Assembly: GCA_021784555.1 (NCBI GenBank)
Contig: JAJYHY010000002.1
Location: forward strand, 16,827 to 80,826
Reading direction: 5' to 3'
Source of the DNA: a bacterium
GTDB lineage: Bacteria > Verrucomicrobiota > Verrucomicrobiia > Limisphaerales > UBA8199
DNA length: 64,000 bases
Below the pieces are notes generated by a model, which did not search any database, had not been told where the DNA came from, and saw only the letters and a program-made list of their open reading frames with translations. Below are positions 7,867 to 63,039 of the stretch, one piece after another. Each line of letters begins with the position of its first letter. Positions within the stretch are counted from its first letter, which is position 1. Made by a program: the position numbers and the translations under genes.

Positions 7867-8601
7867 ATGAGAGTATTGAAGATAAGCAGCGTGCTGATGC
7901 TGGCGGCGGGCCTTTTGGTTGCCTGCGGGCAGAACGGCAAAAAGGAAGCCACAGAGACGGCGCCAGACACGAGCGCCACGGTTGGGGAGCAATCGACAAA
8001 TTCCTCCGGCAGCACCGGCACGGAGGATTCGCAAAACGCATTGAGCGGGACGAACGAGGTGGCGGTGATCAAGACCGGCATGGGCGAGATGGTGGTCGGC
8101 TTTTGGCCGGACGTGGCCCCGAACACGGTGGCGAATTTCAAGAAACTGGCCCGCCAAGGCTTCTATGACGGCACCTGCTTCCATCGTGTCGTCAAGGGCT
8201 TTATGATCCAGGGTGGCGACCCGTTGACCAAAGACCCCTCCAAAGAGGCCGAGTGGGGGACCGGCGGCCCCGGCTACCACATCGATGCTGAGTTTAGCCA
8301 CCGGCATCACGCGCGCGGCGTCATCTCCATGGCGCGCAACGGCGACCCCCGCGAACAGTACGGACAGCCGCCTCGCCCGCAATTCGCCAACAGCGCTGGC
8401 TCGCAATTTTTTATCTGCCAGGCCGATGACGGCTTTCTGGATGGGAAATATACCGACTTCGGCAAACTGATAAAGGGTTACGATGTTTTGGATAAGATCG
8501 CCAATGTGCCGGTCCGCCCCGTGGGCGGCGAGAACAGCCGGCCCATCAAGCGCGTGGATGTGATCAGCATCCGTATTGTCCCGGCCAACCAGGTGAAATG
8601 A
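7867..8601 (+). CDS. Cyclophilin-type peptidyl-prolyl isomerase, lipoprotein
   Basis: Lipobox LLVAC; APNTVANF, FYDGTCFHRV, FMIQGGDP, SAGSQFFI. Confidence 0.9.
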   Translation: MRVLKISSVLMLAAGLLVACGQNGKKEATETAPDTSATVGEQSTNSSGSTGTEDSQNALSGTNEVAVIKTGMGEMVVGFWPDVAPNTVANFKKLARQGFYDGTCFHRVVKGFMIQGGDPLTKDPSKEAEWGTGGPGYHIDAEFSHRHHARGVISMARNGDPREQYGQPPRPQFANSAGSQFFICQADDGFLDGKYTDFGKLIKGYDVLDKIANVPVRPVGGENSRPIKRVDVISIRIVPANQVK

Positions 8602-8624
8602 CTCCCTCCAACCAAGGAACAATC

Positions 8625-9128
8625 ATGAGTGAGGTGGCAATAATTCAAACGAGTGAGGGCGAGATGGTGGTGGAATTCTGGCCGGAGGTGGCGCCCAAGA
8701 CGGTCGAGAATTTCAAGAGGCTCGCGCAAGAGGGCTTTTACGACGGCACCTGTTTCCACCGGGTCATCCGCGATTTCATGGTCCAGGGTGGCGACCCTTT
8801 GACCAAGGACCCGAGCCAGGAGGGATGCTGGGGCACGGGCGGACCCGGGTACCAGGTTAAAGCCGAGTTCAATGACCGGCACCATGATCGCGGCGTGCTT
8901 TCAATGGCCAGGTCCCAGGAACCGGATTCCGCTGGGAGCCAATTCTTCATTTGCCATGGCAACTCGCGGTTCCTCGATCGCCAATACACCGCCTTTGGCA
9001 AGCTCATCAAGGGAGACGACGTGCTCGAAAAGATAGCCACCACCCCAACTCGCCCGCCGGACCGTCCGGTGAAGCGCGTGGTCGTAGAGAGCGTCAAAGT
9101 CAGCCCGGCGGAGACGGCGGGCGTCTAG
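8625..9128 (+). CDS. Cyclophilin-type peptidyl-prolyl isomerase, cytoplasmic paralog
   Basis: APKTVENF, FYDGTCFHRV, SMAR...SAGSQFFI, YTAFG. Confidence 0.9.
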   Translation: MSEVAIIQTSEGEMVVEFWPEVAPKTVENFKRLAQEGFYDGTCFHRVIRDFMVQGGDPLTKDPSQEGCWGTGGPGYQVKAEFNDRHHDRGVLSMARSQEPDSAGSQFFICHGNSRFLDRQYTAFGKLIKGDDVLEKIATTPTRPPDRPVKRVVVESVKVSPAETAGV

Positions 9129-9176: not shown

Positions 9177-9430
9177 CAATGACCAATGATTAATGCTCAA
9201 TTCTCAATGCTTAATGAGCGCTGTTCTCCGCAGGAGAACCTCACTTTCGCCGCGCCAGCGGCGAAAGTGCCTGGAGTCCTTGAATTTCAAGACATGTTGC
9301 AGAAAGGTCAAGTTTTGCCGTTTGTGCGGAGAGGGCGAACCGGCCTCGGGTGTGACGCCAGCGGCATTTTTCATTGGGCATTGGGCATTCGCCATTATTC
9401 ATTGGCGATGCCCAATGCCTAATGCCTCAT
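9177..9430. repeat. Inverted pair of CAATG-core heptamer arrays (9177-9217 and 9361-9430)
   Basis: caatgac caatgat taatgct caattct caatgct versus cattggg cattggg cattcgc cattatt cattggc; the right part recurs inverted at 30117-30190. Confidence 0.7.
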
Positions 9431-9501
9431 GTGAAATGTTCAATGAGATGGAAAAGGTGCTCCGGGGCGCCTCGTTAGAGTTAGATCTGTGCCCCGCACA
9501 C

Positions 9502-30124: not shown

Positions 30125-30190
30125 CCATTGATCATTTGGCATTGCCAATGCCTAATGGCAAATGCCCAATGCGTAATGAAAAATGCCGCG
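30117..30190. repeat. CAATG/CATTG heptamer hairpin element
   Basis: ...aatgcccaatgcgtaatgaaaaatgccgc is nearly the reverse complement of 9361-9425. Confidence 0.7.
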
Positions 30191-30970: not shown

Positions 30971-32508
30971 CAGGCTCCGCGAATAGCCGGCTTGAGCGTC
31001 CAGCTTTGGAGCCGGGCCAACGCCAGGAGTTTCGGGGCACGAAAATCCGCCTTGTGGATAATCCAACCGCCGAACAGGCCCGGCGTATCCTTCGCAATGT
31101 GGCGGGCGGGGAGCAGTTCCGGCTCCGGGCCCAGCGCGACTCCGCCCTCGAGCGGCAGTCGGCCATCGCGCAGGTGGGCATCATACACGCCGGCCATTGC
31201 GACCAGGAACCGCGCTGGCGAGATCGGGTCCGCCCCGATAAAGACGCGCGCCGCGACACGGTGCTGGGTCTGGATGAAGTTGACGACGTCGCGCAAGGCA
31301 TCACGGAAGGCCGGCCACGCGATATGGGTCAGTTGGCCGGAGGTGGAGGGCGCACTGTCTGGACCGAACAGGCCGCGAGCCGGGAGAGGAAAAGAAGGCG
31401 CTGCTCCGCCGAGGAGCGTGTCGTCGGCAAGGGCAAGCAACTCGAACTGGTCGGCAACCGAGTAGCTTCGATTGCCGAGGGTTTGGAAATTCACTGCCGT
31501 GTTGCCATTGGCAACGAGATTCGAGGCCAGCGTTGCCAAATCTCCGGCCGATGCGCCGGTAGAGCGTACGAGGTCGGGATAAACTTCGGGCAAATCGCTG
31601 GCGGTGATGAAGCGCACACCGGGGAACGAGCGGATGTAATCGATGTATTGCCCGAAGCGCGCGAAGGCGCCGTCGATGTCCGCCTGGGACCGCTCCGGCG
31701 GGGCCTTCCATTGCTCGCGAGGCGGGTTGGCGCCGCGGCTGAAGTTGACCGCGTCCCAGAACTTCTGGTGGATGAATTCGCAGGGATGATAATAGATGCT
31801 GATCAGGCCGCCTCCCGCCTTGCGGAGCCGTTGGACGACGGCGGCAAAGGCCCGTTCACCGGGTTGAACCGCGGCCGGATCGTGCAGTTCCATTCGCGTG
31901 CAGTTCTCACCCATATTGAAAACCGTCAGGGCATTTTCATACCAGAAGGGCTGGTGGTTGAGCCCTACGTCATCCCCCTCATCGACGTAACAGGGCACTC
32001 CGTGTGGGGCGACGCCGATCTGCTTGAGCGCGGCTACGGCTTGAGGCGCCCAGGAGGAGCCCGGCTGTCCGTAACAGGCCAGGGTCTTCACCGAGAAAAT
32101 CCTCCGCACGTCCGCCGCGCCGGGACCTTCGCGCCGCACGAACTCCGCTATCCCGTCCAGCCAGCCGCAATCGGCCAGGTACTCCGTTGGGGTGGGATGG
32201 ACGGAATGGAAATTGGAGTGATAAGCGATGGTGTGCTTCCGGAGCGCGTTAATCACATCGAAGCGTCCGCGCCGCTCCAGCGTCCGGGCCTTTTCGCCAA
32301 CGACCTTGAAGGTGGCGCGGATGTGGCGCTCGGTCAGCATCTCCGCGATTCGCTTGGCGGAGTCATCCGATGCCGGGAGCATGTAATCTTCGGTGTCGAA
32401 CCAGAGGATAACGTCAATTCTGGGCTGTTGGGCCAAGGCGCAAAGCCCAAGGAACAACGGCACAAGCAAAGAGATGAGCAGTCGAAGGATGCGGGCATTA
32501 GGTTTCAT
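30967..32508 (-). CDS. Secreted polysaccharide-deacetylase-like protein
   Basis: Signal peptide; WFDTED, ATFKVVG, YHSNFHSVHP, YYHPCEF. Confidence 0.6.
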   Translation of the reverse strand: MKPNARILRLLISLLVPLFLGLCALAQQPRIDVILWFDTEDYMLPASDDSAKRIAEMLTERHIRATFKVVGEKARTLERRGRFDVINALRKHTIAYHSNFHSVHPTPTEYLADCGWLDGIAEFVRREGPGAADVRRIFSVKTLACYGQPGSSWAPQAVAALKQIGVAPHGVPCYVDEGDDVGLNHQPFWYENALTVFNMGENCTRMELHDPAAVQPGERAFAAVVQRLRKAGGGLISIYYHPCEFIHQKFWDAVNFSRGANPPREQWKAPPERSQADIDGAFARFGQYIDYIRSFPGVRFITASDLPEVYPDLVRSTGASAGDLATLASNLVANGNTAVNFQTLGNRSYSVADQFELLALADDTLLGGAAPSFPLPARGLFGPDSAPSTSGQLTHIAWPAFRDALRDVVNFIQTQHRVAARVFIGADPISPARFLVAMAGVYDAHLRDGRLPLEGGVALGPEPELLPARHIAKDTPGLFGGWIIHKADFRAPKLLALARLQSWTLKPAIRGAW

Positions 32509-39680: not shown

Positions 39681-39720
39681 CGCAATCGCAAATCGCAAAT
39701 CTAAAACCGCAAATCGTGAA
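39681..39720. repeat. AATCGCA/AATCTAA heptamer array, solo copy
   Basis: cgcaatcgcaaatcgcaaatctaaaaccgcaaatcg. Confidence 0.75.
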
Positions 39721-42595: not shown

Positions 42596-43810
42596 TTGAA
42601 CCATCTAAGACGCAAAATCGCCGACGAAATCGGCGCGCAAGGGGTTATCTCCTTCGCCCGGTTCATGGAGCTCGCCCTCTACTGTCCTGTTTATGGATAC
42701 TATGAGGCTCAGAAGGAGACGATTGGCCGGCGCGGCGATTATTACACCAGCGTCAGCGTCGGCAGCCTCTTTGGGGAACTGCTGGCCTCCCAATTCGCTC
42801 ATTGGCTGGACGAGGACAGGCCGCAGTTGGTCGAGGCGGGGGCGCACACGGGCTACTTGGCGCGGGATGTCCTGTGGTGGTTTCGAGAGCATCGCCCGGA
42901 CCTGTTCGAGCGCCTTGAATACTGGATTATTGAGCCGTCCACGCGGCGCCGGCGGTGGCAGGAGGACACACTCGCGGCATTTGCCGGACGCGTGCGCTGG
43001 GCGTCTGAAATCGGCGGAGTGGGACCGCCCTCCGCTTTTGGCGACCGGGGCAGAATACGGGGCGTCATCTTCTGCAATGAACTGCTCGACAGCTTTCCGG
43101 TCCGCCGGTTCGGTTGGGATGCGCAAGAGCGCACCACGTTTGAGTGGGGCGTGCGCCTGGAGGGCGCGGAATTCGCCTGGGCCAAAATGCCTGACTCCGA
43201 TTGCAGTTCGTCGGCGCCGACCCTCGGCCAGTCACCGGCCGTCGCTGGGGCCCGCTCCGATGAAGCGCAACAAGACCCATGCGCCCCGGAAGTTCCCGCT
43301 GACGTACTGGCGGTCTTGCCTGCCGACTATACCCTCGAGATCTGCCCTAAGGCCGTAGCCTGGTGGCGCCAGGCGGCGAGGGCGCTCTCACGCGGCCGGC
43401 TCCTGACCTTTGACTATGGCTTCAGCGTGATGGAAAGATTGACACCGGAAAGGCTGCGCGGGACATGCCGGGCGTACTATAAACACAGGCTCACCAACAA
43501 CCTCCTGGCCAATCCCGGCGAGCAGGACCTCACCGCCCACGTGGATTTTGACGTAATCCAGGCCGTTGGCGAGGAGGCGGGGCTGAAGACCGAGACCTTC
43601 GAAAGCCAGGCCCAATTCCTGACCCGAATCGCTTCCCGGATTTGGAGCGGTGAAACCAGTTTCGGCCAATGGACCCCGGCCAAGACACGCCAGTTTCAGA
43701 CATTGACCCACCCCAACCACCTGGGGGCTGCCTTCAGGGTCCTGGTGCAACAGACTGCCTCAATCAAAACAGCCGACATTGATGCATGGGCCGGCGGAAC
43801 GTCGGAGTGA
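42596..43810 (+). CDS. MidA/NDUFAF7-family SAM-dependent methyltransferase
   Basis: FARFMELALY, GDYYTS, CNELLDSFP, FDYG, GEQDLTAHVDF. Confidence 0.88.
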   Translation: MNHLRRKIADEIGAQGVISFARFMELALYCPVYGYYEAQKETIGRRGDYYTSVSVGSLFGELLASQFAHWLDEDRPQLVEAGAHTGYLARDVLWWFREHRPDLFERLEYWIIEPSTRRRRWQEDTLAAFAGRVRWASEIGGVGPPSAFGDRGRIRGVIFCNELLDSFPVRRFGWDAQERTTFEWGVRLEGAEFAWAKMPDSDCSSSAPTLGQSPAVAGARSDEAQQDPCAPEVPADVLAVLPADYTLEICPKAVAWWRQAARALSRGRLLTFDYGFSVMERLTPERLRGTCRAYYKHRLTNNLLANPGEQDLTAHVDFDVIQAVGEEAGLKTETFESQAQFLTRIASRIWSGETSFGQWTPAKTRQFQTLTHPNHLGAAFRVLVQQTASIKTADIDAWAGGTSE

Positions 43811-43894
43811 TGGAGTGATGGAAAACCCGACACTCCAACACTCCAACACTCCATCACTCCATCACTCCAACACTCCATCACTCCATCACTCCAT
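43804..43894. repeat. Octamer tandem array CACTCCA(A/T) x8 with inverted GGAGTGAT units, between convergent genes
   Basis: Eight consecutive units at 43831-43894; the upstream gene's TGA lies inside the repeat. Confidence 0.9.
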
Positions 43895-43907
43895 GGCTCC
43901 ATGCAGA

Positions 43908-45660: not shown

Positions 45661-45895
45661 GTCTCGATTCAAATTTGCGCCTCAAAAACGCCAAATGCAA
45701 TGGCAATCTGGGCGGCTATCCAAGCCGCCCCAGACCTCAACCGCTAATCCACGCTAATAAACGCTAATCAATGAAGGGGTCTTTTTCACGTCTCTCGTGC
45801 GGTGCCCCGGAACTTGACGCGACCACAGCGGGTTTCGCGATTCCAGGACGGTATTGTGGCGAGCAAATTAGGTGGACGCAAACTAAATGTTTTCG

Positions 45896-46026
45896 CGTAA
45901 CTGCTCAGGTGGTGATAGGAGCGCGGACGCCCTCGTCCGCGTCCCGTCTCCAGAAGGCTGCAGTCGCGGAAGAGGGCGTCCGCGCTCCTATCGCGTGCGT
46001 CTGCCAGCTTGACCTGGGCAGTTACG
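45896..46026. repeat. MITE/REP-doublet element, family A, copy 2
   Basis: CGTAACTGCTCAGGT...ACCTGGGCAGTTACG ends; same internal palindromes as copy 1. Confidence 0.82.
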
Positions 46027-46048
46027 TTTTCACAGAATAGGACCCAGT

Positions 46049-47525: not shown

Positions 47526-47620
47526 CGTAACTGCCCAGGTAGCCGATAGGAGCGCGGAGGCCCTCGTCCGCGTCTCCGGGGCGACATAGTCGCGAACGAG
47601 GGCATCCGCGCTCCTATCGC
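47526..47620. repeat. MITE/REP-doublet element, family A, copy 3 (one end missing)
   Basis: CGTAACTGCCCAGGT..GATAGGAGCGCGGA...TCCGCGCTCCTATCGC. Confidence 0.75.
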
Positions 47621-50694: not shown

Positions 50695-50719
50695 GGGAGT
50701 GCTGGGGGGGAAGCGGATA

Positions 50720-50845
50720 GGGATGAGGGATGGGGGGTGATGGATGATGGGTTCAAGACCTCCAGCATCCAAAGGCCCACATGCACCCAACCGGTCCCCC
50801 AGCCCACCAATCCTTCAATCCAATAATCCATCAATCCATTCATCC
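50720..50845. repeat. Degenerate GATGG/AATCC short-period repeats between convergent genes
   Basis: gggatgagggatgg...gatggatgatggg and aatccttcaatccaataatccatcaatccattcatcc. Confidence 0.6.
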
Positions 50846-53110: not shown

Positions 53111-54006
53111 GATTTGCGATTTTAGATTTGCGATTTGCGATTGCCCGCTTCGCGGAGAGATGCCAGGGAGGAACCGGGCCTTGAGGCGCTCCTCCAGGAC
53201 GAACCTTGGCCGAGTTCGATACAAATCGGAAATGAGGCGTCCGGAGCCAAAGTGGGTTTGAGCACACCTTGCAAGGTGTGCTCGCCCTCCGGGCTGCCAC
53301 ACCGCCACCCGCAGGGGTGCGGTTAGCGAGGGCGCGGCGGGTGCGCCAGAGAGTAGGCTGAAGGGGCGGGGCAGGTTATATGAGCACACCTTGCAAGGTG
53401 TGCTCATACAAGTCAAGCCCCTCTCGAGCCGAGGCTGCGGTGTTCCCGGTGGTGTCAACTTCGCCGAGTCGCATAAGACCGTATCGAGTTCGTGTCGCAG
53501 GCGTTGCTTCGCCCGGTGTTCTACGGACTATCTGTTCACTTCCAGTTGCTCTCCACGTCGCGTTGCCGGGACGCGGTTTCTTTCAGTTGTCTGGCGGAAA
53601 GCTCCGCCAGGGAGGGACTTTCACCCTCCGGTGCGCGCCCGCTTCCCAAGCGCACTATCGCCGGCTTCCCAGCCGGCAGGCCGCTGAAATGGTCGCGGTC
53701 GGCGGGCTGGGAAGCCCGCGACACAGCAGACTTGGAAGTCTGCGCTACGCGGTGCGGACTTTGTCACTGGCCGTGGCGGTGTTCCCGGTGGTGTCGACTT
53801 CGCCGAGAAACGGCAGCCGCTCGCTTCCTCTGGAAATGTCCAAACTGCGGGGGGTGCCGCGCCACGACGCTACCACGTGCGTCGCTTGGCGTTGGCGCGC
53901 ACGTCGCGGCGCCGGATGCCCCGACGCAAGGTCCCGGCCTGAGCAGTTATGAATCGCAAACCTAAACTCGCAAATTCACAGGAACCGCAAATCTAAAATC
54001 GCAAAT
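53111..54006. repeat. Repeat-packed divergent intergenic region bounded by inverted heptamer arrays
   Basis: GATTTGC array at 53111-53143 and GCAAATC array at 53952-54006; palindrome GAGCACACCTTGCAAGGTGTGCTC at 53260 and 53382; 32-bp direct repeat at 53437 and 53776; GCAGACTTGGAAGTCTGC near 53727. Confidence 0.8.
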
Positions 54007-55172: not shown

Positions 55173-55249
55173 CATCGGGGTCAGTCCGGCACTTTTTCCG
55201 TCTCTTCCAATCTCCATCCCCGCGGAAAAAGTGAGGACTGACCCCGACG
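55173..55249. repeat. REP-like hairpin family B, copy 2, flanked by a 19-bp direct repeat
   Basis: CGGGGTCAGTCC...GGACTGACCCCG; GCCTTGTGACCGCCAATCC at 55153 and 55261. Confidence 0.85.
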
Positions 55250-55265
55250 CCTTTAACCGTGCCTT

Positions 55266-56003: not shown

Positions 56004-56300
56004 GTGATTTGCGATTTTAGATTTGCGATTTGCGATTTGTGCGCCGGCCTGGCGCGCCTCCTCATTATCACCTGCGGGGGCTCGCCCGGAGCCTGAAGAG
56101 GTGTCAGAGAGAGGCCGGGCATTCAACGCGAGCCACAACTCCGGAGCGCCCCCGCAACAAATCCGTGCTGACCCCGGGGGTCACGGAACGGGCCGGACGT
56201 TCTGGCATCCCTTTTGGGATAAAGAAACGAGCCATTCGACGGCTGAACCTCGACTGACCCTGACAAAAATCGCAAATCGCAAATCTAAAATCAAAAATCA
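56004..56300. repeat. Inverted heptamer arrays enclosing ~225 bp of non-coding DNA
   Basis: gtgatttgcgattttagatttgcgatttgcgattt versus aaatcgcaaatcgcaaatctaaaatcaaaaatcac. Confidence 0.85.
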
Positions 56301-57142: not shown

Positions 57143-60100
57143 GTGAAAACCGAACTAAACAAAACATCCGAACTGGAACGGTTGCTCCGGGAACGCATCC
57201 TGATTCTCGACGGCGCGATGGGCACCATGATTCAGCGTTGCGGGCTGGAGGAGGCGGCGTTTCGTGGCGAAAGGTTCAAGGATTGGCCGCGCGACCTCAA
57301 GGGCAACAACGACCTTCTGAGCCTGACGCGACCCGGCGTTATCCAGTCCGTTCACCGGCAGTATCTCGAAGCCGGAGCGGATATCATCGAGACGAACACG
57401 TTCAATTCCAATTCGATTTCGATGGCCGATTATGGCCTGGAGGGGCTGGCCTACGAGCTGAATCTCGCTGGCGCAAAGATTGCCAGGGCCGCCTCAGCAT
57501 CATTCCTTGCCCTCCACCCGGAGCGGGCCTGTTTCGTGGCCGGCACCCTCGGCCCAACGAGCAAGACCGCCTCCATTTCACCGGACGTGCAGAATGCCGC
57601 CTTTCGGGCCATCACCTTCGACCGATTGGTGGCGGCTTATTCCGAACAAATCCGGGGGCTGGTGGACGGAGGCGTGGACATCTTGCTGGTGGAGACGGTG
57701 TTTGATTCACTGAACGCGAAGGCCGCCCTGTTCGCCATCGACGCGTATTTCGAGGGAACGGGCCGGCGCCTGCCAGTCATGGTGTCCTTTACCATCACGG
57801 ACCTGAGCGGGCGCACGCTCTCAGGCCAGACGGTGGAGGCGTTCTGGAACTCGGTTTCAAATCATCGGCTCTTGAGCGTGGGCATCAATTGCGCGCTTGG
57901 GCCCAAGGAGATGCGTCCGTTTGTTGAGGAATTGGCAGGGGTGGCGGACATTTTTGTGAGCGCGCATCCGAACGCCGGTCTGCCGAACCCGATGTTGCCG
58001 ACCGGCTTTCCAGAGACGCCGGAGACCTTCGCCCCACAGCTCCGGGACTGGGCCCAGGCCGGGTGGCTCAACCTGGTTGGGGGCTGTTGCGGCACGACGC
58101 CGGAGCATATCCGGGTGCTGGCGGAGATGGTGCGGGGATTGCCCCCGCGGGTTCCGGCGAAGGTCGCGCCCTATACCCGGCTGAGCGGCCTGGAGGCGCT
58201 GACCCTTCGGCCTGATACCAATTTCGTCAATATCGGCGAGCGGACCAACGTGACCGGGTCGCCCAAGTTCGCGAAGTTGGTCCTGGCTGGCGATTACGAG
58301 GCGGGGCTGGCCGTCGCCAAGCAGCAGGTCGAGAACGGCGCGCAGATCATCGATGTGAACCTGGACGAGGCGATGCTCGACTCGCAGAAGGCGATGACCA
58401 CGTTCCTGAACCTGGTAGCGGCGGAGCCGGACATAGCGCGCGTGCCGGTGATGATCGACAGCTCGAAATGGACGGTCATTGAGGCGGGACTTAAATGTCT
58501 CCAGGGCAAAGGGGTGGTCAATTCTATCAGCCTGAAGGAGGGTGAGGAGAAGTTCAAAAGCCAGGCGCGGCTGATTCGGGGTTACGGCGCCGCGGTGGTG
58601 GTCATGGCCTTTGACGAACGGGGCCAGGCCGATTCCTTCGAGCGCCGAATCGAAGTCTGCGAGCGGTCCTATCGAATTCTGACACAGGAAATCGGTCTCC
58701 CGCCCCAGGACATCATTTTCGATCCGAACGTCTTGACGGTTGCCACTGGCATGGAGGAGCACAACAATTACGCCGTCGATTTCATTCGCGCCACGCGCTG
58801 GATCAAGCAGAACCTGCCATTGGCCCGGGTCAGCGGCGGGATTAGCAACATTTCCTTTTCCTTCCGCGGCAACAACCCGGTGCGCGAGGCGATGCACTCG
58901 GCCTTCCTCTACCATGCCATCAGGGCCGGCCTGGACATGGGGATTGTCAACGCGGGCATGCTCGGGGTCTATGAAGAGATACCAAAAGACCTGCTGGAGC
59001 TGGTGGAGGACGTGCTGCTTAACCGGCGCCCCGACGCTACCGAACGTCTGGTCAAGTTCGCCGATTCTGTCAAGAGCCAAGGCAAGGCCGAAGTCCAGCA
59101 GGACGAATGGCGGAGCGGGACGGTCGATGAGCGGCTGAGCCACGCCCTGGTCAAGGGCATCGTCGATTACATCGACCAGGACACCGAGGAGGCGCGGCGG
59201 AAGTATGGCCGTCCGCTGGCGGTGATAGAAGGCCCGCTGATGGCGGGGATGAACATCGTGGGAGAGTTGTTTGGCTCGGGCCGGATGTTTCTGCCGCAGG
59301 TGGTCAAGAGCGCGCGGGTGATGAAAAAGGCGGTGGCCTATCTGCTGCCGTTCATGGAGGCCGAAAAGCTGGCCTCCGGCAATCATCGCGCCCAGGGCCG
59401 CATCCTGATGGCGACGGTCAAAGGCGACGTTCACGACATTGGCAAGAACATCGTGGGCGTGGTGCTCGGCTGCAACAATTACGAGATTATCGACCTGGGG
59501 GTCATGGTGCCTTCGGAAAAAATCCTGCAAGTCGCGCGCGAGAAGGACGTGGACCTGGTGGGCCTGAGCGGCCTGATCACGCCTTCGCTCGATGAAATGG
59601 TTCACGTGGCCAAGGAGATGCAGCGCCAGGGATTCTCCCTTCCGCTGCTTATCGGAGGCGCCACGACCAGCAAGGCGCATACGGCGGTGAAGATCGCTCC
59701 CGGCTATTCCCATCCGGTGGTTCACGTCCTGGACGCCTCACGGGCGGTCGGGATAGTGGCAAAGCTGATGAATCCCGAACTCAAGCCGGCCTTCCTCGAA
59801 GAGCTCCGCGGCGGCTACGAGCAGCTCCGCAAACAGCATGGCGAACCCCGCGCCAAACCGCTCCTTTCGCTGGCTGAGGCGCGAGCGCGGCGCCTCTCCA
59901 TTGAGTGGCGGCCGGAGCAGCTTCCCAGGCCGGAATTCACGGGGGTACGAGTGCTGGCATCGGATGCCCGCGCGGCGGCGGCCTCGGACGGGGTTGCGGG
60001 GCGCAACGGCGAAGGGCCAAAGCAAGAGCAGGGGAAAGGGAAAGAGCAAGAGCAGGAGCAAGAGGCTTTGAACGGGGCGGGCGGGCGGAACGGCGAGAGG

Positions 60101-61027
60101 CCGGCGCCGAGCGTTATTCGATTGGAAGACCTGGTCCCCTATATTGACTGGTCGCCGTTCTTCCACACCTGGGAGATGCGCGGGCGCTATCCGGCGATTC
60201 TGGAGAACCCGGAGGCCGAAAAGCTCTTCGAAGACGCGCAGGCGCTCCTGGACCAGATCGTCGCGAAAAACCTCCTCGTCGCTCGCGGGGTCTATGGGTT
60301 TTTCCCGGCTAATTCGGTCGGCGACGACGTGGAGCTTTACTCCAACGGTTCCCGCGCCCATCCGCTGGCCACCTTCCATTTCCTGCGACAGCAGATGGAC
60401 AAGCCCCAGGACCAATTCAACCTCTGCCTGGCCGATTTCGTCGCGCCCAAGACCCTCAAAACGTCCGCGCTCGCGCCGCTCCCGGATTATATCGGGGCGT
60501 TCGCGGTCAGCGCCGGCTTTGGCGCGGAGGAACTGTGCCGGCAATTCGAGCGCGACCACGACGACTACAATTCCATCATGACCAAGGCCCTGGCCGACCG
60601 CCTGGCCGAGGCCTTCGCCGAATTCCTCCACGAACGGGTGCGGCGCCAGTGGGGCTACGGCAAAGATGAAAACCTGGCCAAAGAGGACCTCCTCCGCGAG
60701 CGCTACCGCGGCATCCGGCCCGCCGCCGGCTATCCCGCCTGCCCCGACCATACCGAGAAATGGACGCTCTGGAAGCTGCTCGACGTAGAAAAGAACACCG
60801 GCATCCGGCTCACGGAAAGCTGCGCGATGTGGCCGGGCGCCAGCGTCAGCGGCCTCTACTTCGCGCATGAGCGGTCAAAATATTTTGGCGTGGGCAAGAT
60901 CGACCGCGCTCAGGTCCTCGATTATCAAGGCCGCAAGCAAATGGACCTCCGCGCGCTGGAACGCTGGCTGGGGCCATGTCTGGACTACGAGCCGGAGCCC
61001 GCTGTGGATTTGCGATTTGCGATTTAG
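57143..61027 (+). CDS. metH: Cobalamin-dependent methionine synthase
   Basis: [46 protein letters not shown]. Confidence 0.97.
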
Positions 61028-61533
61028 GGGAATTTGCGATTTTAGATTTGCGATTTTAGATTTGCGATTTGCGATTTGCGGTTTGGCGGCGCGTTTGAGA
61101 GCCTGGGGCCATGAACGAAGCTGAGTTGAAGCAGAGAACAAAGAAGTTTGCCTTGCGCGTCTTGAGGCTCGTGGCGGCGTTGCCGCGAACGACGGAGGGC
61201 CGCGCCATCGGAGGCCAGTTGGTCCGCAGCGGCACTTCCGTGGGCGCCAACTATCGCGCTGCCTGCCGTGGACGTTCGAAGGCCGAGTTTATCTCCAAGC
61301 TGGGGACCGTAGAGGAAGAAGCCGACGAGTCCGCATACTGGATGGAGCTGATCGTTGAAGCAGGCCTGTTGAAGGCACAGCGCGTGAGAGCACTGCTCGA
61401 TGAGGCAACCGAACTCACAGCTATCATGGTTGCGTCCCGCATCTCGTCCTCACGGCGTCCTTAAATCGCAAATCGCAAATCTAAAATCGCAAATTGCCCT
61501 AAATCGCAAATCGCAAATCAAAAATCTAAAATC
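61007..61533. mobile_element. Four-helix-bundle gene cassette bounded by inverted heptamer arrays (IVS-like)
   Basis: 61007-61063 and 61463-61519 are reverse complements at 54 of 57 positions; mobility is inferred. Confidence 0.6.
61111..61464 (+). CDS. Four helix bundle protein (23S rRNA IVP / TIGR02436-like)
   Basis: QLVRSGTSVGANYR.ACRGRSKAEFISKL..VEEEADES.YWMEL. Confidence 0.92.
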   Translation: MNEAELKQRTKKFALRVLRLVAALPRTTEGRAIGGQLVRSGTSVGANYRAACRGRSKAEFISKLGTVEEEADESAYWMELIVEAGLLKAQRVRALLDEATELTAIMVASRISSSRRP

Positions 61534-61534
61534 C

Positions 61535-62653
61535 TCACCACGGTTTCCGCTTGTTCATCTCGGTAACGATGGTCCGGCGCAGGGCCAGGGCGTCGATGCT
61601 GCCGGTCTCGCTGTAAAGGATCTTGCCTTCGGGCGACATCAGGACCGTGTAGGGGACGGCGCCCTGCCAGTCCGGGTTGAAGGCGTCGATGAGTTTGTCC
61701 CGGTCGGCACTGGCGAAGATGAGGTTCCGGCACGAGGCCTGTTCCTTCTTCAGAAAGCCGAGCACGCTCTGCCGCTCCTCTGGACGGTTCATCGAAACGG
61801 TCACCAGCTCGAACTCGCGATGCCGGTACATGCGGTTCATGGTCACGAACTCATGGAACTCGGCCATGCATGAGGGGCACCACGTCGCCCAGAAGTTGAC
61901 CAGGCGGAACTTGCCGGAAGCGTTCTTGCGCAGCGCCCGGAGGGCCTGGGCATCCGCGGGGGCGAGGGACACCGGCTCGGCCGCCAATTGCGCCATGTAG
62001 GCCCTGACCGAGGCCTCCTTGCCGGCCCATTTGGTGGAGCACCCGATCACTCGGGTATGGGTGACCTGCGGCTGGCGGCCAGCCAGCAGCGCGTCAATGG
62101 CGTCGCGGACATAATGGCGTTTCACGTATTGAACTCGCTCCGAGTCGTCAATGGCGCCGACGTAACGGAGTTTGCGCGCCGAATCGAAGACGAATGCGTG
62201 CGGCGTGGCCACGGGCCCGTAAGCGCGCGCGGTTGCCTCGGTGTCGCCGTCATAGAGATAGGGATAGTTGAAGTGCCGGGCGCGGGCGCGGAGCTTCATT
62301 TCCGCGAAAGAATCGCTCAGGTCGGTCCAGCCCAGTTCATCGAGCCGAATGGCCTTTGGGTCATTGGGCATGATGGCCACTACCGCCACGCCTTTGTCCT
62401 TGTAGTCGGCAACCAATTGCTTGATGCGTGGCTCATAGTACTGCGCCGTCGGGCAATGGTCGCAAGTGAATATGATGACCAGGGCCTTGGCCCCGGCAAA
62501 GGATTTCAACGAATATTGGCGCCCATCCACACCCGGCAGGTTGAAGTCGGGCGCAGGCGAACCCAATGGGAGTGTCCGGGGCTGAAAATCCTCGGCGCAT
62601 ACCGCGCCCGGCAACGTGGCCGCGAGCAAGAAGGAAAACAGGAGCGATTTCAT
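61535..62653 (-). CDS. Secreted two-domain redoxin/thioredoxin-like protein
   Basis: Signal peptide; APDFNLPG, CDHCP, GCSTKW; second domain NFWATWCPSC. Confidence 0.85.
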   Translation of the reverse strand: MKSLLFSFLLAATLPGAVCAEDFQPRTLPLGSPAPDFNLPGVDGRQYSLKSFAGAKALVIIFTCDHCPTAQYYEPRIKQLVADYKDKGVAVVAIMPNDPKAIRLDELGWTDLSDSFAEMKLRARARHFNYPYLYDGDTEATARAYGPVATPHAFVFDSARKLRYVGAIDDSERVQYVKRHYVRDAIDALLAGRQPQVTHTRVIGCSTKWAGKEASVRAYMAQLAAEPVSLAPADAQALRALRKNASGKFRLVNFWATWCPSCMAEFHEFVTMNRMYRHREFELVTVSMNRPEERQSVLGFLKKEQASCRNLIFASADRDKLIDAFNPDWQGAVPYTVLMSPEGKILYSETGSIDALALRRTIVTEMNKRKPW

Positions 62654-63039
62654 ATCCTGGTAGATTACCCGCCGTGCGAGAGCCTGCAAGCCGGAGGATC
62701 TGCGATTTAACGACGCGGCCGCGTAATTTATTGTCGCGCCCAGTGGCGGGTGCAGCCCCGGCCAGGGCGATTGCCAAGGCGCGCCGGTCCGATGCCAAGG
62801 CGAGGAATGAGCCTGCTTGCGCAAGCGAGTATAGATCCCTCCGCTCCTTCCAGTCACTTCCTTCTTCTGTCACCGTAGGGGACTGTCTTCGCTGAGGTGC
62901 GCACGCCACTTATATTTTTTCATTTTTTTGCTTGATCCAATCCCGGCCACGTGATAATAGTCGGCCAAGTTCCCTCATCCGGCGCCGAAGGCAACCTCCC
63001 CTAGCGGCCGAAAGAGAGACGAACAAAAGAACTATCCTT

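Follow-up and report, generated by a model that had tools for sequence, protein, structure and literature searches.

The protein family PF05635/TIGR02436 was first found in intervening sequences (IVSs) of 23S rRNA, and IVSs that carry an open reading frame (ORF) are also present in Leptospira. The family is very large, and to our knowledge its function outside diversity-generating retroelements (DGRs) is not known. Here, a member of this family was analyzed that lies between metH and a redoxin gene in a 64,000-nt stretch of DNA (hereafter the window, to which all positions refer unless another location is named) from a bacterium of the Verrucomicrobiota (GenBank assembly GCA_021784555.1, contig JAJYHY010000002.1). 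The genome of the window, G000, comprises 8.82 Mb in 658 contigs and is 87% complete. The gene is enclosed by two long inverted arrays, or arms, of the heptamer GATTTGC, and gene and arms together are called the cassette. A search against Rfam gave no match at the cassette, and one tRNA and no rRNA in the whole window. The comparisons reported below indicate that the cassette is a real, discrete, and constrained unit of gene plus arms, belonging to the IVS-protein family but placed outside rRNA, which undergoes turnover at the DNA level and, in this genus, is associated with solo arms that form a large polar family.

The described system nearest to this locus is the 23S rRNA IVS of Coxiella. 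According to the text of PMC4990558, it measures 428-444 nt and has a 28-bp terminal stem that RNase III cuts mid-stem, at the first of two to three tandem GACAGAT heptamers upstream of S23p, and its authors record an old idea that the ORF might serve mobility. The cassette, of ~527 nt, encodes the same protein family, has its ORF in a stem loop formed by terminal inverted repeats, and has tandem heptamers beside the start codon. In contrast to 23S IVSs, which occupy helix 25 or 45, it lies between two protein-coding genes; its arms consist of heptamers throughout, and hundreds of copies of the same arm are scattered over the genome with no gene attached. Cleavage is reported for the Coxiella IVS and would be a prediction for the cassette.

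Short intergenic hairpin elements also include MITEs, which are small transposable elements with inverted repeats, and the REPIN/RAYT systems of repetitive extragenic palindromes (REPs) and their associated transposases (Correia, REP/BIME), and Y1 transposases are known movers of hairpin repeats. Intergenic heptamer repeats are known from cyanobacteria as short tandemly repeated repetitive (STRR) sequences. In Xanthomonas campestris, 186 arrays of the heptamer GGGAATC were counted in Xcc, with 70 convergent pairs (PMC4692102). The TAACTGA heptamer sets of Beggiatoaceae and cyanobacteria were proposed to regulate translation (PMC4679880), GGGGAYT of Nostoc is another over-represented intergenic heptamer, and both heptamer papers interpret their repeats either as G-quadruplex elements or as translational ones. 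The arrays of the cassette resemble all of these in being intergenic, tandem, over-represented, and often in convergent pairs. A supplement (file 2, row 15) of PMC4692102 places a GGGAATC array over the start codon of XCC0516, which is the protein of PDB entry 2GSC and a fold match of the cassette gene (TM-score ~0.83). Because of this overlap, seen on one flank, the dominant heptamer of X. campestris appears to sit on its own four-helix-bundle gene, a family that the main texts of PMC4692102 and PMC4679880 do not mention. Within the publications retrieved, and as far as their texts extend, a literature search found partial precedents alone for a heptamer-armed four-helix-bundle cassette, namely the Coxiella IVS heptamers, the Xanthomonas GGGAATC arrays, and the TAACTGA sets.

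A repeat search placed the arms at 61007-61063 and 61463-61519, as 57-nt inverted repeats that are 95% complementary (3 mismatches) and spaced by 399 nt, while Tandem Repeats Finder (TRF) widened the arrays to 61007-61085 on the left (period 7, 10.9 copies) and 61463-61533 on the right (Table 1). A non-repeat junction, TTTAGGG(G/C)AATTTG, is common to both arms. The two-unit pattern GATTTGCGATTT, with up to one mismatch, occurred 25 times in the window against 0.28 expected and a maximum of 3 in 100 shuffles, and the flanks of the cassette gene had an inverted-repeat score of 47.5, compared with a mean of 8.1, a 99th percentile of 12.0, and a maximum of 17.5 among 2000 random ORFs. As the pattern exceeds the shuffles and the flank score lies above all random-ORF controls, a chance origin of the arms is excluded. 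The sequence-only reading, an earlier interpretation of this DNA, had viewed the arms as a matched pair that is integral to the gene cassette rather than two independent microsatellites, and the 57-nt near-complement, the common junction, and the recurrence of the architecture throughout the family bear this out. It had also located the stop codons of metH and of the cassette gene in the arms, where they were found (TAG at 61025-61027 on the left and TAA at 61462-61464 on the right), and the last MetH residues are indeed repeat-encoded: the final seven codons (VDLRFAI) and the stop come from the left array, and the homology of MetH to its relatives ends 6-10 residues short of the C-terminus.

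Both arms are compound, with an outer sub-array (61007-61027 and 61501-61533) that meets an inner one (61031-61085 and 61463-61497) at the junction. The inner part is like a 32/33-nt arm that is present at many other loci, and a canonical cassette may be nested here within the arms of a second hairpin.

The encoded protein matched PF05635 (E-value 6e-17, 62.2 bits against a cut-off of 33.8) and TIGR02436 (88.7 bits against a cut-off of 24), and phmmer matched it to 2RLD (E-value 8e-17). Its AlphaFold2 model is a single domain of 117 amino acids, where family members have ~110-140, and contains four helices (pLDDT of 97.2). Foldseek matched the model to BT_0352 (2RLD) with a TM-score of 0.87-0.90. 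It also matched Avd, the accessory protein of the Bordetella phage retroelement (4DWL; chain E of 8UB7), with a TM-score of 0.76-0.81, at a sequence identity of 10-12%. The earlier assignment of the protein to the S23p family, with structural kinship to Avd, is therefore upheld by profile matches above the cut-offs and by the Foldseek matches. The nearest solved relatives, 2RLD and 2GSC, have five chains each (A-E), and the protein itself counts 20 lysines and arginines against 14 aspartates and glutamates. PADLOC returned no match for the gene. Between this gene and its counterpart in the GATTTGC cassette of a congener (G001), dN/dS was 0.085 (dS 0.58, pS 0.40; 49 of 351 bases differ), which indicates strong purifying selection on the protein.

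The likeness to Avd raises the question of whether the gene encodes an accessory protein of a DGR. Avd has been described as a barrel of five subunits that is positively charged, contains an RNA-binding element, and binds structured RNA beside its own gene (10.1101/2023.10.23.563531), and PF05635 was reported as the commonest family adjoining DGR reverse transcriptases (PMC10053308), which together with the four-helix-bundle fold would suit such a role. In contrast to an avd locus, the cassette has no reverse transcriptase: none of the eight RVT_1 matches in the genome is on the contig of the window. Its neighbors are metH and the redoxin gene, no template/variable pair was found, and the heptamer arms are the sole repeats at the locus. 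A DGR origin is thus very improbable.

The sequence-only reading had set as its test that other genes of the family should be flanked by inverted arrays, and they were. A profile search identified 15 PF05635 matches in G000, nearly every copy of which is flanked by inverted arrays of period 7 or 8, with a unit that differs from copy to copy (for example AGAAGTC/GACCTCT, GGATTGAT/ATCACTCC, AAGGCTA/TAGCCTT, GGAATGC/GCATTCC, and CATTGAG/CAATGCC). With one copy at a contig end left out, 12 of the 14 testable copies had inverted flanks above the 99th percentile of controls; the two that fell short were C392, which is truncated and has a TGA in frame, and C561, which is a partial match. The relatives were tested by a uniform procedure on 250 nt per side, with 1500 random ORFs as controls (99th percentile 13.0, maximum 49.5). 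When the best homologue was taken from each of the further genomes in the taxonomic family, 28 loci were testable, and the inverted flanks of 26 passed. A pattern scan of 185,579 species genomes yielded at least 601 stretches, of which at least 518 encode a relative of this protein. The best 80 of these at least 518 relatives, with one genome per species and 56-78% protein identity, represent one clade rather than the whole Pfam family, and inverted flanks passed in 72 of the 78 testable loci among them. Their record titles name Verrucomicrobia, Acidobacteriota, Planctomycetota, Chloroflexi, Lentisphaerae, Nitrospirae, Spirochaetes, Bacteroidetes, Cyanobacteria, a candidate-phylum bacterium, and others. 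Pooled over the three sets, 110 of the 120 genes that could be tested had arms, whereas the threshold by construction admits 1% of controls. The best lag corresponded to a period of 7 in 42 of the 43 cross-phylum loci that passed a first inverted-repeat scoring, and the median arm length over 98 cassettes was 32 nt (interquartile range 28-36). The layout is therefore a trait of the family rather than chance: in paralogues, in relatives, and in other phyla, the arms go with the gene.

The unit itself varied with the protein. The homologue in the congener G001 (94% identity) has the same 33-nt arm, a homologue at 81% has GATTTGC, one at 69% has GATTGCC, those at 61-63% have GATTTTT, and those at 53-57% have GATTTAC, GATTTAT, or GATTTCC. 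Over 94 cassettes, the distance between units grew with the distance between proteins (Mantel r of 0.37, reached by 0 of 999 permutations). The fraction of pairs with identical units was 83% at a protein identity of at least 90% (6 pairs), and decreased to 41% at 80-90%, 16% at 70-80%, 7% at 60-70%, 2% at 50-60%, and 0% below 50%. What needs explaining is the joint change of all units in both arms.

The turnover of the cassette was assessed in G001, the sole other genome of the genus that was compared, in which the flanking genes are 86-89% identical in DNA and four sites are comparable. None of the four is common to the two genomes: two lack the cassette in the other genome, and two retain a solo arm. 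At the 3' end of metH in G001, homology stops at window position 60999, which is 8 nt before the arm, and no array is present; past this point, G001 has a different MetH tail and then another gene. The 94%-identical cassette of G001 is instead located between two Hsp70-like genes, and the orthologous interval in G000 (C282:9000-9145) has no array and no gene, as the two ORFs overlap by ATGA and an unrelated hairpin repeat lies within. At the C449 site, which in G000 holds a CATTGAG-armed cassette, G001 retains an identical 49-nt left arm and the spacer to the base before the ATG, followed directly by the right flank. The 595 nt that are absent comprise the ORF, the right arm, and a further 187 nt, and both breakpoints end in AC, a microhomology. 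A match to the CATTGAG cassette (88% of nucleotides) was found on another contig of G001, beside a 3' fragment of a further copy. At the C126 site, where G000 has an AAGGCTA-armed cassette, the right arm alone is present at the orthologous place in G001. In addition, the C477 cassette had no match in G001, and the flanks of the C252 cassette were not found there.

These comparisons show that the two congeners differ by gains, losses, and partial deletions of the unit as DNA, with solo arms left as scars, in agreement with the suggestion of the sequence-only reading that the cassette could be an excisable or mobile RNA/DNA unit. The DNA identity of the cassettes between G000 and G001 (86-88%) is the same as that of their flanks, which suits relocation, or old paralogues lost differentially, better than a recent import. 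As for an empty metH-redoxin junction in relatives, which the sequence-only reading had looked to, the congener has a metH end without a cassette, and in other genera synteny is not conserved: none of 29 metH loci has a cassette gene or this redoxin downstream. The cassette is also absent downstream of all 10 redoxin orthologues in relatives, each of which ends in KPW and a stop. In a relative from another genus (L048, G004:C69), a gene-less heptamer hairpin of the GTTACAA type directly follows the stop of the redoxin orthologue, in the place where G000 has the cassette.

Positions 61463-61494 of the right arm are identical at 32 of 32 bases to the right arm of the G001 cassette, for which the chance at the synonymous-site rate is ~0.6^32 = 1e-7 by our arithmetic; the arm sequence is thus conserved far beyond that rate. 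The need for a stem alone would permit compensatory change, and the exact conservation therefore points to sequence-specific recognition or continual homogenization.

An assembly artefact that joined the cassette to metH and to the redoxin gene through repeats, or a chance pair of microsatellites, could in principle mimic such a locus. The arm is present at hundreds of loci, and because Logan unitigs assembled from the probable source run break within the arms, the joins from metH through arm, gene, and arm to the redoxin gene rest on the original assembly. Additionally, unitig joins across the gene belong to other hairpins. However, the outer arm parts beside metH and beside the redoxin gene share a private junction, the unitig depths are similar (7.1, 7.3, and 9.1), the architecture recurs in independent assemblies at the 110 loci counted above, and the filled and scar junctions at C449 lie outside repeats. 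Such an origin is accordingly regarded as scarcely credible. The unitig joins that skip the gene were also considered as empty sites, and were rejected as they carry the loop sequences of C595 and C651.

The heptamer is not confined to this cassette, and GATTTGC is the most abundant array family of G000. TRF reported 1062 rows of period 7 and 447 of period 8 among 4977, with period 7 the commonest, and these merged into 1514 regions. The commonest unit was AAATCGC, the complement of GATTTGC (197 of 1397 regions; the runner-up had 59), and a pattern search counted 388 GATTTGC arrays. The 32-nt arm consensus, in which GATTTTA is a fixed internal variant as the second unit, was found 40 times without a mismatch and 103 times when up to two mismatches were allowed. 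Among array pairs less than 250 nt apart, 23 were in the order GATTTGC...GCAAATC and none in the reverse order; because this order reads alike on both strands, it represents a true polarity. Across all unit families with at least two hairpins, the minority polarity occurred in 1 of 49 hairpins. The lengths of the 388 arrays did not follow a geometric distribution, with 164 arrays of 12 nt, 51 of 19 nt, 53 of 26 nt, 107 of 33 nt, and ~13 that are longer. The outer side of an array abutted the end or start of a long ORF in 61% of 200 arrays and the inner side in 23.5%. At random positions, the two classes of the outer side gave 11.5% and 23%, and the two classes of the inner side gave 9.6% and 22.5%. 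In this genus, the arm has multiplied to hundreds of polar, size-limited copies, with a mode at 33 nt, that abut gene ends. The exact two-unit pattern occurred 217 times in G000, 85 in G001, 27 in G021, 12 in G052, 7 in G003, and at most 4 times elsewhere, with none in 30 of 45 genomes of the taxonomic family, suggesting that the GATTTGC expansion is genus-specific and does not simply track the gene.

These dispersed arrays allow a regulatory explanation, in which the protein is a trans-acting nucleic-acid-binding regulator, the arrays are its operator or untranslated-region sites, the cassette's own arms serve autoregulation, and the arrays spread by selection and duplication rather than through mobility of the cassette. 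The placement of the 388 arrays at gene boundaries, the fixed 33-nt size with 103 near-identical copies, and the conservation of the arm beyond the neutral rate would all suit a regulon, as would the translational role proposed for the TAACTGA sets in PMC4679880. On the other hand, the cassette is found at different loci in congeners and leaves scars, and an armed gene often has few or no other arrays in its genome, as in G003 with its 7 matches and in the 30 family genomes where GATTTGC is absent. The homologues at 56-78% identity in many phyla, among the best 80 of the at least 518, also fit a transferable unit better than a host regulon. We consider regulation an unlikely primary explanation, and one that is compatible with a mobile cassette rather than its exclusive alternative.

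Compared with MITEs and REPINs, the arrays and cassettes of G000 likewise include many short polar intergenic hairpins, a gene-bearing 'master' together with gene-less forms, and sites that are present or absent between close relatives. As in MITEs, terminal inverted repeats coincide with dispersed copies (388 arrays, 103 arm copies, and 23 short hairpins). In contrast, the ends are tandem heptamers rather than unique inverted repeats, the encoded protein is a 117-amino-acid helical bundle without a nuclease or transposase fold, and no target-site duplication was seen. A link to REPIN/RAYT systems was rejected, since none of 10 examined genes of PF01797 (Y1), out of 18 matches, had an array of period 7 or 8 within 600 nt. 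A Y1 (IS200/RAYT-type) transposase gene at G000:C599:4012-4350 has strong non-periodic inverted repeat flanks (score 43); it looks REPtron-like and distinct from the heptamers.

A 551-nt transcript model was predicted to fold at -239.5 kcal/mol, compared with -197.5 +/- 6.9 for shuffles (z of -6.1), and the arms paired in both the minimum free energy and the centroid structure. This prediction agrees with the sequence-only reading, which had expected a metH read-through transcript to pair the arms into a stem. The genome also has a gene for RNase III. In the mechanism that we propose, transcripts through the cassette, including read-through from metH, would fold the arms into a stem of at least 50 bp, which host RNase III would cut as in ORF-bearing 23S rRNA IVSs. 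Tandem heptamers would be recognized by the protein, which, as in its relatives, is probably pentameric with a positive charge, and about five units per arm would fit one ring. Such recognition would hold the arm sequence constant and would allow the persistence or spread both of the cassette and of gene-less forms derived from it. Insertion at this locus would have rewritten the last residues of MetH, and the cassette would fill the whole gap between two convergent genes. Processing of the cassette by RNase III is proposed by analogy to the Coxiella IVS, and the mechanism as a whole, with stem processing and a probably pentameric protein that reads about five heptamers, is plausible from such comparisons. 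The explanation that we lean towards is a self-contained hairpin cassette of ~527 bp with one Avd-like four-helix-bundle gene and inverted, cassette-specific GATTTGC ends, acting through this mechanism.

Evidence that gene-less hairpins derive from such cassettes was found in a few cases. The loop of a GATTTGC hairpin in C280 includes 61 nt that are 82% identical to the leader and first codons of the cassette (E-value 2e-13), and tblastn in G000 revealed a dozen fragments of family genes adjoining arrays. The AATTGAG hairpin family of G000 has 77 arrays and 17 hairpins of one polarity, in which AATTAAG is a fixed variant unit and the loops, of 59-211 nt, are homologous to one another (for example C191:19874-20012, C302:19890-20024, and C562:3793-3927). 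No intact gene with AATTGAG arms was found in the G000 assembly, and the loops at C15 (E-value 0.001) and C182 (E-value 0.04; 0.009 with the family hidden Markov model, or HMM) contain weak remnants, at the protein level, of a gene of the CATTGAG-cassette type.

Several results weigh against the proposed cassette mechanism. Among the loops of 66 short hairpins, the family HMM matched only one (1 of 660 in controls) and left 65 without a match, and blastn of the loops against cassettes matched 3 of 66 (controls 7 of 660), where C280 alone was convincing; some gene-less hairpins thus seem to be decayed cassettes, while for most of them descent from a cassette cannot be shown. Where the loop between inverted arrays spans 251-1200 nt, a full family gene is present in 8 of the 37 pairs. 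Same-polarity GATTTGC arms also bracket genes outside the family, so the arms are not exclusive to the family gene. Array abundance is decoupled from the gene, as G003 encodes an 81% homologue with GATTTGC arms and has 7 matches of the pattern, while G021 has 27 matches and no close homologue. The trend between unit and protein shows co-inheritance rather than recognition, as linkage or kinship alone predicts it. At the junctions read in the Hsp70-like, C449, and C126 comparisons, no target-site duplication or other insertion signature was present, and relocation fits the comparison between congeners no better than differential loss of ancestral paralogues, the two being indistinguishable here. 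Profile searches recognized no nuclease, recombinase, or transposase family in the sole ORF of the cassette. A consensus scan of the cassette returned zero promoters and zero terminators, with no sigma-70-like promoter in the leader at the threshold, and the contigs of one metatranscriptome of the same study gave no match on the cassette.

Some of these results would also suit an account in which the arrays are the ends of an element moved by another factor, or hot spots of recombination or structure, and small genes were captured in the loops. The hicA/hicB, DUF433, and UPF0150-like genes bracketed by GATTTGC arms, the nested hairpins of other families that are visible in loops elsewhere in the genome, the loops without gene remnants, which are the majority, and the breaks in synteny with the congener at arrays all speak for such capture. 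However, the arms vary per cassette and track the protein phylogeny across phyla, and one host factor could hardly recognize all of them. The presence of arms at nearly all testable family genes (110 of 120) also speaks against capture, as does the absence of arrays near the Y1 genes examined. Capture of the gene as a passenger is therefore judged improbable, and somewhat more so than a regulon.

The cassette mechanism, if extended beyond this locus, would make PF05635 proteins the specificity factors of an undescribed class of bacterial mobile cassettes with tandem-heptamer termini, in which a pentameric ring reads about five units per arm. Such cassettes would insert, decay, and leave solo arms, and would thereby be the origin of intergenic heptamer excess, including GGGAATC of Xanthomonas, the cyanobacterial and Beggiatoa repeats, and the 388 GATTTGC arrays, while the rRNA IVS would be a special case that landed in 23S rRNA. 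This generalization is offered tentatively, as a possibility that we consider doubtful at present. The link between the gene and its own heptamer nevertheless provides a concrete candidate ligand for PF05635/TIGR02436, and it joins three literatures, on rRNA intervening sequences, retroelement Avd, and heptamer microsatellites of unexplained origin. A testable source of heptamer repeat families is suggested by the scars, together with solo arms that are polar and limited in size. For annotation, cassettes of this kind alter gene ends (here the MetH C-terminus), fill operon gaps, and break assemblies.

Table 1. Positions of the cassette, its neighboring genes, and other GATTTGC-armed loci.
Feature	Position	Strand	Basis or remark
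metH, cobalamin-dependent methionine synthase	57143..61027	+	ORF, five MetH Pfam domains
Left arm, outer part: GATTTGC GATTTGC GATTTAG and GGG junction	61007..61030	.	Pairs with 61498-61519
Left arm, inner part: AATTTGC GATTTTA GATTTGC GATTTTA GATTTGC x3 GGTTTG (8 units)	61031..61085	.	Sequence, repeat search, TRF
25-nt leader, left arm to start codon	61086..61110	+	Kept in congener copy (GGCGGCGCGTTTGAGAGCCTGGGGCC vs GGGCGGCTTCTTTGAGAGCTTTTGGCC)
117-aa four-helix-bundle gene, PF05635/TIGR02436, Avd-like; TAA 61462-61464 overlaps right arm	61111..61464	+	Profile, fold, dN/dS
Right arm, inner part: AAATCGC AAATCGC AAATCTA AAATCGC AAATTGC	61463..61497	.	Sequence, repeat search, TRF
Right arm, CCT junction and outer part: AAATCGC AAATCGC AAATCAA AAATCTA AAATC	61498..61533	.	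Sequence, repeat search, TRF
Convergent AhpC/redoxin-thioredoxin-like gene; stop 2 nt from right array	61535..62857	-	ORF, Pfam
Gene-less hairpin: 33-nt GATTTGC arm, 226-nt loop, complementary arm; between two convergent ORFs	56006..56299	.	
GATTTGC-family arm pair, ~800 nt of other repeats inside, no family gene	53111..54006	.	
GATTTGC-armed non-family loci: HicA toxin/HicB-like antitoxin pair, DUF433 gene, UPF0150-like gene, set between paralogous permease-like genes	G000:C78:7866-8372; C97:3029-3522; C62:72-627		

Cassettes with other units were also observed in recurrent surroundings. A GCAGAAT-armed cassette lies beside a tRNA gene cluster in several genera (L015, which is G000:C561, and L074, L077-L079, L081, and L084), and a conserved non-coding stretch (CCATTTCAACAAAGAACAAACACCTCTTGCTATC...) that follows it matched no Rfam family at the gathering score. 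In four genomes that represent three genera (L070, L071, L072, and L080), one and the same gap holds a GATTTAC-armed cassette; the neighbors, as read from the flanking translations, are cdsA-like and dxr-like, and the cassette has kept its place through speciation. In G000, one GGAATGC-armed copy is located ~1.6 kb downstream of a 544-amino-acid reverse-transcriptase ORF on the same strand (G000:C135:29571-29924 and 31553-32170).

Other repeats and minor features were noted as well. A segment of ~115 nt (CCGGCTTCCCAGCCGGCAGGCCGCTGAAATGG...) within 53143-53951, inside the larger arm pair of Table 1, recurs just upstream of the C40 four-helix-bundle cassette (G000:C40 ~8560-8745). A candidate promoter in the alternating units of the arm (TTGCGA-17-TAGATT) matched at 8 of 12 positions, below the scan threshold, and was dropped. 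In MetH, the B12-binding domain is separated from the activation domain by a low-complexity insert at residues ~930-985 (window 59930-60090), where TRF gave a period of 6/12 at 60021-60064. A REP-like, GC-rich palindromic repeat (GGAGCGCGGACGCCCTC ... GAGGGCGTCCGCGCTCC) at 45895-46030 and 47543-47620 has dozens of matches in G001 on both strands and looks unrelated to the heptamers. A small hairpin repeat (GGGGTCAGTCC..CACTTTTTCCG / CGGAAAAAGTG..GGACTGACCCC) occurs at 55173-55250 and at G000:C282:9050-9130; it is absent at the orthologous G001 site and has copies elsewhere in G001. Further arrays of period 7 or 8 are present in the window at 9184-9431, 30143-30187, 43804-43902, 50715-50845, and 39684-39716, and consist of CAATGCT/CATTGGG, TGCCTAA, nine copies of CACTCCAT, GGATGAG/CCATCAAT, and a solo array of the GATTTGC family.

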